A DNA stretch of 64,000 nt from Capsulimonadaceae bacterium (GCA_965215505.1 OZ244065.1:1984001-2048000); one strand, 5' to 3'. Numbered from the stretch's first letter, positions 47,428 through 49,694 are shown. Program-made: numbers and translations. The notes: generated by a model not told the origin, from the sequence alone.

Positions 47428-47489
47428 GATGATTGTTTTCCTTAGCCGCCCGGACTCCGGCGACTGCCGGGATCCGGGCGGTGATTGTC

Positions 47490-48440
47490 TTAGCGACCGC
47501 CGCCGCCGGGGCGTCCGCCGCCACCGCCGAAGCCGCCACCGCCGCCAGGCCGACCGCCGCCGAAGCCGCCGCCACCGCCCGGCCCGCGCCCGCCGCCGGG
47601 GCCGCCGCGACCGCCGCCGCCGAAGCCTCCACCGCCGCCGCGCCCGCCGCCGGCACCGCCGCGACCACCGCCGCCACGACTGCCGCCCGCACCGCCGCGT
47701 CCGCCGCGTCCGGCGCTCGGGCCGCGATCACCGAAGCCCTCTTCGGCGTTCAGGCGGCGCTGCTGCTGCTGCTGCAAGGCGATGTCCGCCGTCGTCAGCC
47801 GCTTCTGGCCGGGCAGGATGTCGCCCTTGTAGATCCATACCTTGACGCCGATGTTGCCATAGGTCGTCGGCGCTTCCGCGAAACCGTAGTCAATGTCCGC
47901 CCGCAAGGTGTGCAGGGGGATCTTGCCCAGACGGTCGCCCTCTTTGCGGGCCATCTCACTGCCGTTCAGCCGGCCCGAGCTGAGGATGCGAATGCCCTTC
48001 GCCCCCAGCTTCATGGCGCGCGTGACGGCCTGACGCATGGCGCGCTTGTAAGAGACGCGCTTGGTGATCTGCTGCGCGATGCTCTCCGCCACAAGCTGGG
48101 CGTCCAGCTCGGGGTGCCGGATCTCATTGACATTGGCCTGGAACGACTTCTTGAACTTGTCTTCCAGGACCGCGCGCAGATCGTCCACGCCCTTGCCGCC
48201 GCGCCCGATGATAATGCCGGGCTTGGCGGTGTGCAGAGTCACCTTGACGCGGTTCGCCGCCCGCTCGATCTCGACGCGCGCGATGGAGGCGTTCGCCAAG
48301 GTCTTGCTATTCTTGATGAAGGCGCGGATGTGGAAGTCTTCCACCAGGGCCTTGGCGTAGCCCTTATCCAGATACCACTTGCTCTCCCAGTCGCGGTTCA
48401 CGCCGACGCGGAACCCGACGGGATGGATCTTCTGTCCCAT
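47490..48440 (-). CDS. rpsC: 30S ribosomal protein S3 with Gly/Arg-rich tail
   Basis: [27 protein letters not shown]. Confidence 0.98.
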
Positions 48441-48443
48441 GCG

Positions 48444-49394
48444 TTATTCTCCCTCTTCCCGCTTCTGATCGGCGCCTTCGCTCGGGTCGGGCGCGCGGTC
48501 GGACACTTCGATCTCCGGCGAGTCCGAGGCCGTCACCGGGGTGGCCTCGTGCGGCACCTCGGAGGTCTCCGCCATCGCCTTCGGTGCCTTGGCCTGCCCG
48601 CTGTCGGACGTGTTGGCCGTGTCACCGGTCCCGCCCTCGCCCTGCTCCGAACCCGGAACCTGCCGGGTTTCCTCGGCGGGGGCCACGACCGGCGTGTCCA
48701 GGGCGACTTCCGCCCCGGCCTGCTCGGTCGTACTCTGGTTGGCGAGCGTGACGTTCTCCGCCTTCGGCGCGGCCGGTGCCTGGGTCGCCTTCGGCTTGGC
48801 CGGCGTCGCCGCAGCGCGGCGCGGGCGCGGCGCGACGGCGGGGGCGTCGGTCAGGATGACGGTCAGGTGGCTGGTCCGCTTCAGGATGCGGTAGGCGCGG
48901 CCCTGGGCGCGGGCGCGGACCCGCTTCAGGGTCGGGCCGCCGTCGGCCAGGATGTTCTGGACCTTCAGCTCCTCGACGCCCGCCCCCCAGCCATCCTGGG
49001 CGTTCGCGGCGGCGGAGATGACGACCTTGGTGATCAGCTCGGCGGCGTGGTTCGGGATGAAGCGCAGCATGGCGAGCGCCTCGGAGACGCGCTTGCCCTT
49101 GATGGCGTCAATGACCAGGCGGGCCTTGCGCGGCGAGGTGCGGACCCACTTGGCGACGGCGCGGGCTTCGGCCACGACCTCGACGGTCACGGTGCGGCTG
49201 TTGCCGATCTGCTCCGTCAGGGCTTCCGTCAGGGCCTGCGCCTCCATCCGCACGTTGTTCGGGCGGCTGGTATGGAGCAGGACCTTGAGGCTGCCGTCCT
49301 TTTCCTTGGTTAGTTTCAGCTTAGAAACCGGCGTCCGCCCCAGCACGTCTTTGACGGTGGGGAGCAGGGCGCGGTCCCGTGCAGCGGTGTTCAT
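48444..49394 (-). CDS. rplV: 50S ribosomal protein L22 with N- and C-terminal extensions
   Basis: Core SPRKARLV...RARAQGRA..I.KRTSH; AAGGA RBS at the extended start. Confidence 0.95.
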   Translation of the reverse strand: MNTAARDRALLPTVKDVLGRTPVSKLKLTKEKDGSLKVLLHTSRPNNVRMEAQALTEALTEQIGNSRTVTVEVVAEARAVAKWVRTSPRKARLVIDAIKGKRVSEALAMLRFIPNHAAELITKVVISAAANAQDGWGAGVEELKVQNILADGGPTLKRVRARAQGRAYRILKRTSHLTVILTDAPAVAPRPRRAAATPAKPKATQAPAAPKAENVTLANQSTTEQAGAEVALDTPVVAPAEETRQVPGSEQGEGGTGDTANTSDSGQAKAPKAMAETSEVPHEATPVTASDSPEIEVSDRAPDPSEGADQKREEGE

Positions 49395-49406
49395 TGTGTG
49401 TTTTCC

Positions 49407-49694
49407 TTATCGGCCCCGCGTCGTCCGCGTGTCCTTCGAGCCGGCGTGGCCCTTGAAGGTGCGGGTCAGCGCGAACTCGCCGAGCTTGTGGCCGACCATG
49501 TTCTCCGTGACGAAGACGGGGATATGCTTGCGCCCGTCATGCACGGCCAGGGTGTGGCCGATCATCTGCGGGAAGATGGTGGACCGGCGCGACCAGGTCT
49601 TGATGATGCGCTTCTCGTTGCGCGCGTTCATGTCATCGATGCGCTTGAGCAGCTTGACGTCCGCGAACGGACCTTTTTTTAGTGAGCGTCCCAT
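49407..49694 (-). CDS. rpsS: 30S ribosomal protein S19
   Basis: [22 protein letters not shown]. Confidence 0.98.

Follow-up and report, generated by a model that had tools for sequence, protein, structure and literature searches.

An N-terminal extension of ribosomal protein uL22 in one bacterial family is predicted to form a degenerate KH-like domain, probably descended from that of S3

Few proteins are as conserved as those of the ribosome, and the additions that single lineages make to them are usually disordered tails. The rplV gene described here, which encodes uL22, raises the question of what to make of an addition of another kind: a long N-terminal segment that precedes the canonical core, and whose sequence recalls a domain of the small-subunit protein encoded next door. 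Is this segment a folded domain, where does it come from, and does it belong to the mature protein at all? The gene lies on the minus strand of a stretch of DNA of 64,000 nucleotides, which was analysed as a whole and is called the window below. The features on which the analysis turns are the following.

48444–49394, minus strand: rplV (uL22), an open reading frame of 316 amino acids with its ATG at 49394.
49170–49394, minus strand: N-terminal extension of rplV, codons 1–75, predicted to be type II KH-like without GxxG (open reading frame, conservation, AF2, Foldseek and hhalign).
48849–49169, minus strand: canonical uL22 core, residues 76–182 (Pfam Ribosomal_L22).
48447–48848, minus strand: C-terminal extension of L22, residues 183–316, 134 amino acids (translation and alignment).
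49404–49408, minus strand: AAGGA, a Shine-Dalgarno-like sequence upstream of rplV (sequence read).
49407–49694, minus strand: rpsS (S19), the gene upstream of rplV (ORF list and tblastn synteny).
48129–48338, minus strand: rpsC codons 35–104, the S3 KH domain, putative source or paralogue of the extension (Pfam KH_2 and hhalign).

The S10-operon genes of the window are ordered L23-L2-S19-L22-S3 along the minus strand. The order L2-S19-L22-S3 is kept at the loci examined by tblastn in the window's family (f1) and in its sister family (f2), a few of these loci being cut by a contig end; close relatives are labelled Armatimonadota or Armatimonadetes, by two source names. The Pfam model Ribosomal_L22 (PF00237) aligns over its whole length (1–104 of 104) with residues 79–182 of the product, with an E-value of 1.2e-33 and 115.8 bits against a cut-off of 28. 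This complete match above the curated cut-off, together with the site between rpsS and rpsC, identifies the protein as uL22. Residues 1–75 of the window's L22 match no Pfam family. A sequence-only reading of this DNA had flagged about 75 extra residues ahead of the L22 core, and it was right: the extension is 75 residues long, the Pfam core starts at residue 79, and the span flagged, 49170–49394, is exactly codons 1–75. It had also placed the start at an ATG served by an AAGGA ribosome-binding site just after the rpsS stop, which a reading of the sequence confirms. The stop codon of rpsS occupies 49407–49409, 12 nt from the rplV ATG, and AAGGA overlaps this stop, with 9 nt between its end and the ATG.

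At the other end of the protein, the C-terminal tail is rich in Pro, Ala and Lys and then becomes strongly acidic. Among relatives its length and sequence vary; the final ~40 residues are conserved (…EATPVTASD…SDRAPDPSEGADQKREEGE) and end in EEGE. S3 has a tail as well, of ~95 residues (S3 residues ~218–316; 47493–47790, minus strand), which is rich in Gly and Arg with GGRGG and GGGF runs; its charge is opposite to that of the acidic tail of L22, whose gene lies immediately upstream.

The elements of a type II KH domain follow the order α-β-β-α-α-β, and this topology is found in both AF2 predictions that include the extension. Modelled alone (pLDDT 77.6), the extension has helices at residues 3–18, 45–50 and 52–63 and strands at residues 23–30, 36–42 and 69–74. 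When residues 1–185 are modelled together (pLDDT 85.1, pTM 0.76) the secondary-structure elements are unchanged, and a single strand, 69–84, links the last strand of the extension to strand 1 of L22. The inputs were two different 22-row alignments, the second more diverse, both of them shallow and drawn from one family. Comparison of the 75-residue model with the PDB by Foldseek gives the highest query-normalised TM-scores for bacterial uS3 (0.75–0.76, with an rmsd of 2.1–2.2 Å and 17–20% identity over 75 columns; chains 8buu_c, 8qcq_c and 9fy1_c), followed by yeast Rps3 (0.73), the human S3 KH domain (0.61) and the KH domain of archaeal NusA (0.59). The identity of 8qcq_c, 9fy1_c and the entries 8buu and 8cdu as uS3 was taken from the PDB profile search described below. 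The Foldseek E-values are marginal, the best being 6.1e-4, and the lowest two belong to a eukaryotic ribosome chain and to the C-terminal domain of a zinc transporter, not to uS3. With the 185-residue model, the best 50 Foldseek matches are ribosomal or L22 chains over about 108–119 columns (136 in one case), none of which covers residues 1–75; a look-up of residues 1–75 in the ESM Atlas gave no usable match. A KH-like fold for the extension, on which the sequence-only reading had staked its proposal in advance, is what the predictions deliver, as α-β-β-α-α-β with uS3 as the best match by TM-score.

The likeness to S3 is also seen in the sequences. The extension contains KVLLHTSRP and S3 contains KVTLHTAKP, so the shared string KV.LHT..P reported earlier is present in both. 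In S3, Pfam KH_2 matches residues 46–111 (E = 5.9e-15), with GRGG at residues 79–82. No G-x-x-G occurs in the extension, again as reported: HMMER and hhalign both put a four-residue gap opposite the GRGG of S3, and the central helices are joined by R-M-E rather than by a GxxG loop of the KH_2 kind.

Profiles were compared with hhalign using an alignment of 31 distinct extensions, including those of divergent genera, and one of 34 distinct S3 N-domains taken from four families, among them f1 and f2. Residues 7–73 of the extension are paired with residues 35–104 of S3, with a score of 38.0, a probability of 90.2% and a P-value of 1.5e-6 over 65 columns, at an identity of about 17%. The reversed S3 alignment scores 9.1, and among 30 column shuffles the highest score is 17.3 and the median 10.3. 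Each of the 34 S3 N-domains has a positive, in-register score against the extension profile. An earlier hhalign comparison with shallow alignments, which returned a probability of 16.5% in the register that had been proposed by eye, is superseded by these broader alignments. A six-frame search of 401 genomes with the extension profile yields only two matches outside the window's family (E = 4.1e-4 and 6.2e-4 per genome), both of them on S3 residues ~35–104. When the profile is run against the PDB sequences no match reaches significance, the best being Nup54 (E = 0.065); uS3 accounts for 9 of the 15 matches at E ≤ 10, aligned across the KH domain, and is the only KH protein recovered. Common ancestry with the S3 KH domain is detectable in the hhalign comparison and its controls and in the two genome matches.

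An independent origin for the extension, either de novo or from an unrelated small α/β family, would make the likeness to S3 a matter of fold convergence and a chance motif. Several results are as expected from such an origin. Pfam KH_2 (PF07650) matches neither the window segment (E ≤ 1) nor any of 14 members (E ≤ 10), nor does it find the extension in a six-frame search of the genome (E ≤ 1), and the extension falls short of the KH_2 gathering score. In the window pair, BLASTP finds no in-register match, only one of 21 residues out of register (E = 0.071), and in an HMMER search of the six-frame ORFs of the genome the genome's own S3 is not significant (E = 14). Identity to S3 is only about 17%, the Foldseek E-values are about 1e-3 to 1e-2, and Foldseek also returns other α-β-β-α-β folds, namely the C-terminal domain of CzcD/ZnT1 and a domain of PrgK. 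However, chance and convergence do not readily account for a P-value of 1.5e-6 across the full domain with reversed and shuffled controls that score far lower, nor for in-register S3 KH domains being the sole matches outside the family in 401 genomes; uS3 moreover supplies 9 of the 15 weak PDB profile matches and the highest TM-scores. We therefore consider an independent origin unlikely. Other Pfam matches to the extension (best E = 0.031) were to unrelated families in one or two of the 14 members and were dismissed.

The reading that we prefer, and regard as probable, is that of a three-part uL22 whose N-terminal part derives from the KH domain of S3 and is itself a type II KH domain in degenerate form. 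The profile comparisons support the view that the extension is a degenerate KH-like domain derived from S3; it is not filed as a member of the KH_2 family, because Pfam KH_2 never matches it and the GxxG loop is absent. The domain would have retained the α-β-β-α-α-β fold and a strand-to-helix motif, h-[HYF]-T/S-S-[RK]-P, and would have lost the four residues of the GxxG loop.

It may be asked whether the donor was the neighbouring rpsC. The extension could instead be a type II KH derivative of another KH protein (Era-, KhpA-, NusA- or RbfA-like), or of a foreign S3. With the extension profile, the S3 of a distant family reaches 26.5 bits, against 8.5–14.5 bits for S3 of the sister family and 6.8–10.5 bits for S3 of the window's own family, a ranking that would suit a foreign donor. 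In single-sequence hhalign comparisons, however, the genome's own S3 scores 24.4 in register, whereas eight other ORFs of the same genome that match KH or RbfA models score 18.5 or less, none of them at the KH domain; uS3 is also alone among KH proteins in the PDB profile search, and the adjacency of the two genes would make local duplication the simplest route. A donor other than the neighbouring rpsC is accordingly judged very unlikely. Because S3 of the window's own family scores below that of a distant family, the resident rpsC is not singled out as the donor. The sequence-only reading had proposed a partial duplication of rpsC fused to rplV: homology to the S3 KH domain is upheld by the hhalign probability of 90.2%, and the resident rpsC would be the putative donor.

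We infer that the neighbouring rpsC was nevertheless the donor and that the route was one of duplication and fusion. Under the preferred reading, a local duplication in the S10 operon at the base of the window's family would have fused a fragment of rpsC (about codons 29–106) in frame with the opening codons of rplV. A possible route would be that rplV and the 5′ portion of rpsC were duplicated in tandem and that the upstream rplV copy was later lost. In S3 numbering the domain runs from about residue 29 to the end of the KH fold (~106), and no linker stands between it and the L22 core; this is exactly the junction that such a tandem duplication would produce.

The distribution of the extension is sharply bounded. 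With residues 1–78 as query, 138 L22 proteins are found at E ≤ 0.001 among 555 candidates; among the 120 matches listed, all have the L22 Pfam domain, and identity over the extension is 69–96%. When the whole protein is the query, the match begins at residue 1 in all 24 other genomes of the window's family and at residues 71–91 in 15 of the 16 genomes of the sister family. At the loci of the sister family the L22 match starts only about 45–60 nt after the S19 match ends, a gap too short to hold the domain. In a sample of 401 genomes of the phylum, the extension profile detects the window's own genome and 28 of 28 further genomes of its family, spread over 9 genera, and none of 24 genomes of the sister family; no L22 outside the window's family is matched in this sample, the two other genomes with a match being matched on S3. 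A search of 1.84 billion representative proteins gives 10 matches, of which 7 carry the extension. Five of these are L22 proteins with a readable core after the extension (P0101, P0075, P0124, P0126 and P0127), three of which are more divergent, with F or Y replacing the H of HTSRP; the other two (P0122 and P0123) lose the frame after the extension. The remaining three matches (P0125, P0128 and P0129) are giant repeat proteins with P_proprotein, Calx-beta and other domains, and were rejected as relatives because their profile scores sum many weak stretches.

The duplication had been called old, and from these searches that word can be given a scale: the extension appears to be old at the level of the family, being present in the 9 genera sampled and not found in the sister family. 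It makes a clean sequence marker for the family. Two proteins that are 87–95% identical over the extension come from metagenome-assembled genomes with the source labels Pseudomonadota bacterium and Janthinobacterium lividum (P0021 and P0048); these are likely to be mis-binned contigs, since the domain is otherwise restricted to one family. In three genomes rplV is interrupted: in one record (G020) two TGA codons fall within the tail region and the ORF measures 181 amino acids, and two others (G036 and G037) have one TAA each. These interruptions are probably assembly errors. In G037 a match that seemed to enter L22 at residue 27 was rejected, as it consists of unrelated sequence before a stop at the contig end.

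Whether translation begins at the upstream ATG or inside the frame was examined across the family. At all 25 loci of the window's family that were compared, the ATG and a Shine-Dalgarno sequence (an AGGA, GGAG or GAGG stretch) are kept, and residues 1–12, MNTAARDRALLP, are invariant across 18 sampled homologues. In pairwise Nei-Gojobori estimates over 33 distinct genes of the family, at a dS of about 1.0, the median dN/dS of the extension is 0.18; that of the core is 0.09 and that of the tail, whose alignment is gappy, 0.22. The frame is open in all 29 matching genomes of the family. Codon 74 is GTG in 7 of 34 distinct junction sequences and GTC, GTT, GTA, ATC or ATT in the rest; by manual count, GTG stands at codon 73 or 74 in 17 of the 34. 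Absence of the extension from the mature protein, with a start at an internal GTG or ATN near codons 73–74 and an upstream frame that is open by chance or serves as an RNA leader, is hardly credible: codon 74 of the window gene is indeed GTG with GAGG 2 nt upstream, and GC-rich DNA gives many long spurious ORFs (for instance one of 626 amino acids on the plus strand, 47433–49313), but the low dN/dS, the invariant N-terminus with its conserved start signals, the open frame in every matching genome, the presence of GTG at codon 74 in only 7 of the 34 junctions, and the confident AF2 prediction of a fold all stand against it.

The plus-strand frame just mentioned runs antisense to S3 and L22 and is rich in Ala, Arg and Gly, of the spurious type found in GC-rich DNA. 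Because the start site is conserved, the N-terminus invariant, dN/dS low and the codon-74 GTG rarely kept, the extension is, as far as comparison of genes can tell, part of the L22 protein and under purifying selection. The upstream start, which the sequence-only reading had set against the internal GTG as one of its two tests, prevails on these counts (25 of 25 loci, dN/dS 0.18, codon-74 GTG in 7 of 34 junctions).

The globular domain of uL22 lies on the solvent face of the 50S subunit, beside the peptide exit. In the predicted arrangement, the last strand of the new domain continues into strand 1 of L22, which would hold the domain rigidly on the L22 globular body. Extra mass at this protein has been placed near the exit in other ribosomes. 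According to the section of the mycobacterial report that deals with it, L22 of M. smegmatis is 43 amino acids longer, at both termini, and extra density at the tunnel exit was assigned to L4, L17, L22 and L29 (PMC3286452); in the corresponding part of the chloroplast work, the 60-residue C-terminal extension of spinach cpL22 lies at the back of the large subunit, adjoining the tunnel exit (PMC5389730). From the position of uL22, these mycobacterial and chloroplast extensions, and the predicted strand-to-strand join, the domain is expected to be a fixed surface module near the tunnel exit.

What such a module might do can be approached through the site of the lost loop. KH domains hold single-stranded nucleic acid by their GxxG loop, and because this loop is absent, classical KH binding of single-stranded RNA by the extension is unlikely. 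The residues at the site of the lost loop are nevertheless conserved, S43 and P45 without exception and R44, R49 and E51 almost so; this conservation, with the net basic charge, suggests that the extension contacts rRNA or protein. The domain may serve as an extra structural module that touches rRNA or neighbouring proteins through the basic residues R6, K30, R44 and R49, and it could offer a docking surface for exit-site factors. A bolder proposal, which we think quite unlikely, is that a small-subunit domain recruited by duplication within the operon provides an S3-like site for handling RNA or factors at the 50S exit and rewires factor or membrane docking there, or that it mediates autoregulation of L22 through the S10-operon mRNA.

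Related changes in other parts of the ribosome were also looked for. A correlated change in 23S rRNA was sought by comparing the window's family, the sister family and E. coli, and no link to the L22 extension was established. The 23S rRNA of the window's family has an insertion of ~44 nt at E. coli positions ~275–283, which is absent from three genomes of the sister family and from E. coli; in the window's own genome (23S rRNA locus L082, G000:C1:4115069–4118001) the insertion region spans positions ~275–361 of the molecule. By helix numbering, we take this insertion to lie in the same area as the mycobacterial H15/H16a insertions. The latter, at H14/H16, are located near the L1 stalk and bL9, not near L22, in the passages that describe them (PMC3286452, PMC5737476). 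The 23S rRNA of the sister family lacks ~45 nt at E. coli positions 1461–1516. A role for the extension as a replacement for a lost neighbour, bL32, is unsupported, because bL32 is present in both families (24 of 24 genomes of the window's family and 16 of 16 of its sister). The bL32 matches, over ~53 model positions, measure 171–195 nt in the window's family (in its own genome G000:C1:5653287–5653478) and 150–165 nt in the sister family, which suggests a small insertion in bL32 of the former.

A universal large-subunit protein appears here to have gained a folded, strongly conserved domain whose closest relative is a domain of a small-subunit protein, the product of the gene next to it. Should this be correct, the family, which belongs to a poorly studied phylum, offers a dated, family-level example of ribosomes gaining structured surface modules through local duplication of gene fragments, and the surface of its ribosome would be remodelled, probably close to the peptide exit. 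In the main texts of a literature collection that includes few subscription journals, we found no description of a KH-like domain on L22 or of the L22 of this family.

Among known systems the KH domain of uS3 (KH_2, PF07650) stands closest. The order of elements is predicted to be identical, the TM-score is 0.75–0.76 at an rmsd of about 2.1 Å, the profile match covers the whole domain, and the motif [LIV]-H-T-[AS]-[KR]-P is common to both. In contrast to uS3, the extension has no GxxG loop (GRGG in the window's S3) and no Pfam KH_2 match, it lacks the first ~28 residues of S3, and it is joined to a protein of the large subunit, not to the S3 C-domain. Retention of a KH fold with an altered signature has been met before. 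RbfA is a KH-like domain without the canonical GxxG loop, and hhalign detects no resemblance between the genome's own RbfA and the extension profile (score 11.9, P = 0.24). FILIA, as the part of the report concerned presents it, is an atypical KH protein (PMC3261892). In both, as in the extension, the KH-type fold appears to be kept with the signature loop altered or lost; as far as those accounts go, RbfA and FILIA are free-standing factors, whereas the extension is fused to a ribosomal protein. The mycobacterial and chloroplast uL22 extensions resemble that of the present family in being lineage-restricted extra mass at the termini of uL22, but the portions of those reports that treat them describe terminal extensions or extra density and not a recognisable folded copy of a ribosomal protein. 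Lineage-specific extensions of ribosomal proteins are thus already known; what is unusual here, and is supported by the comparisons with S3, is a folded domain that appears to have been copied from the gene of an adjacent small-subunit protein.
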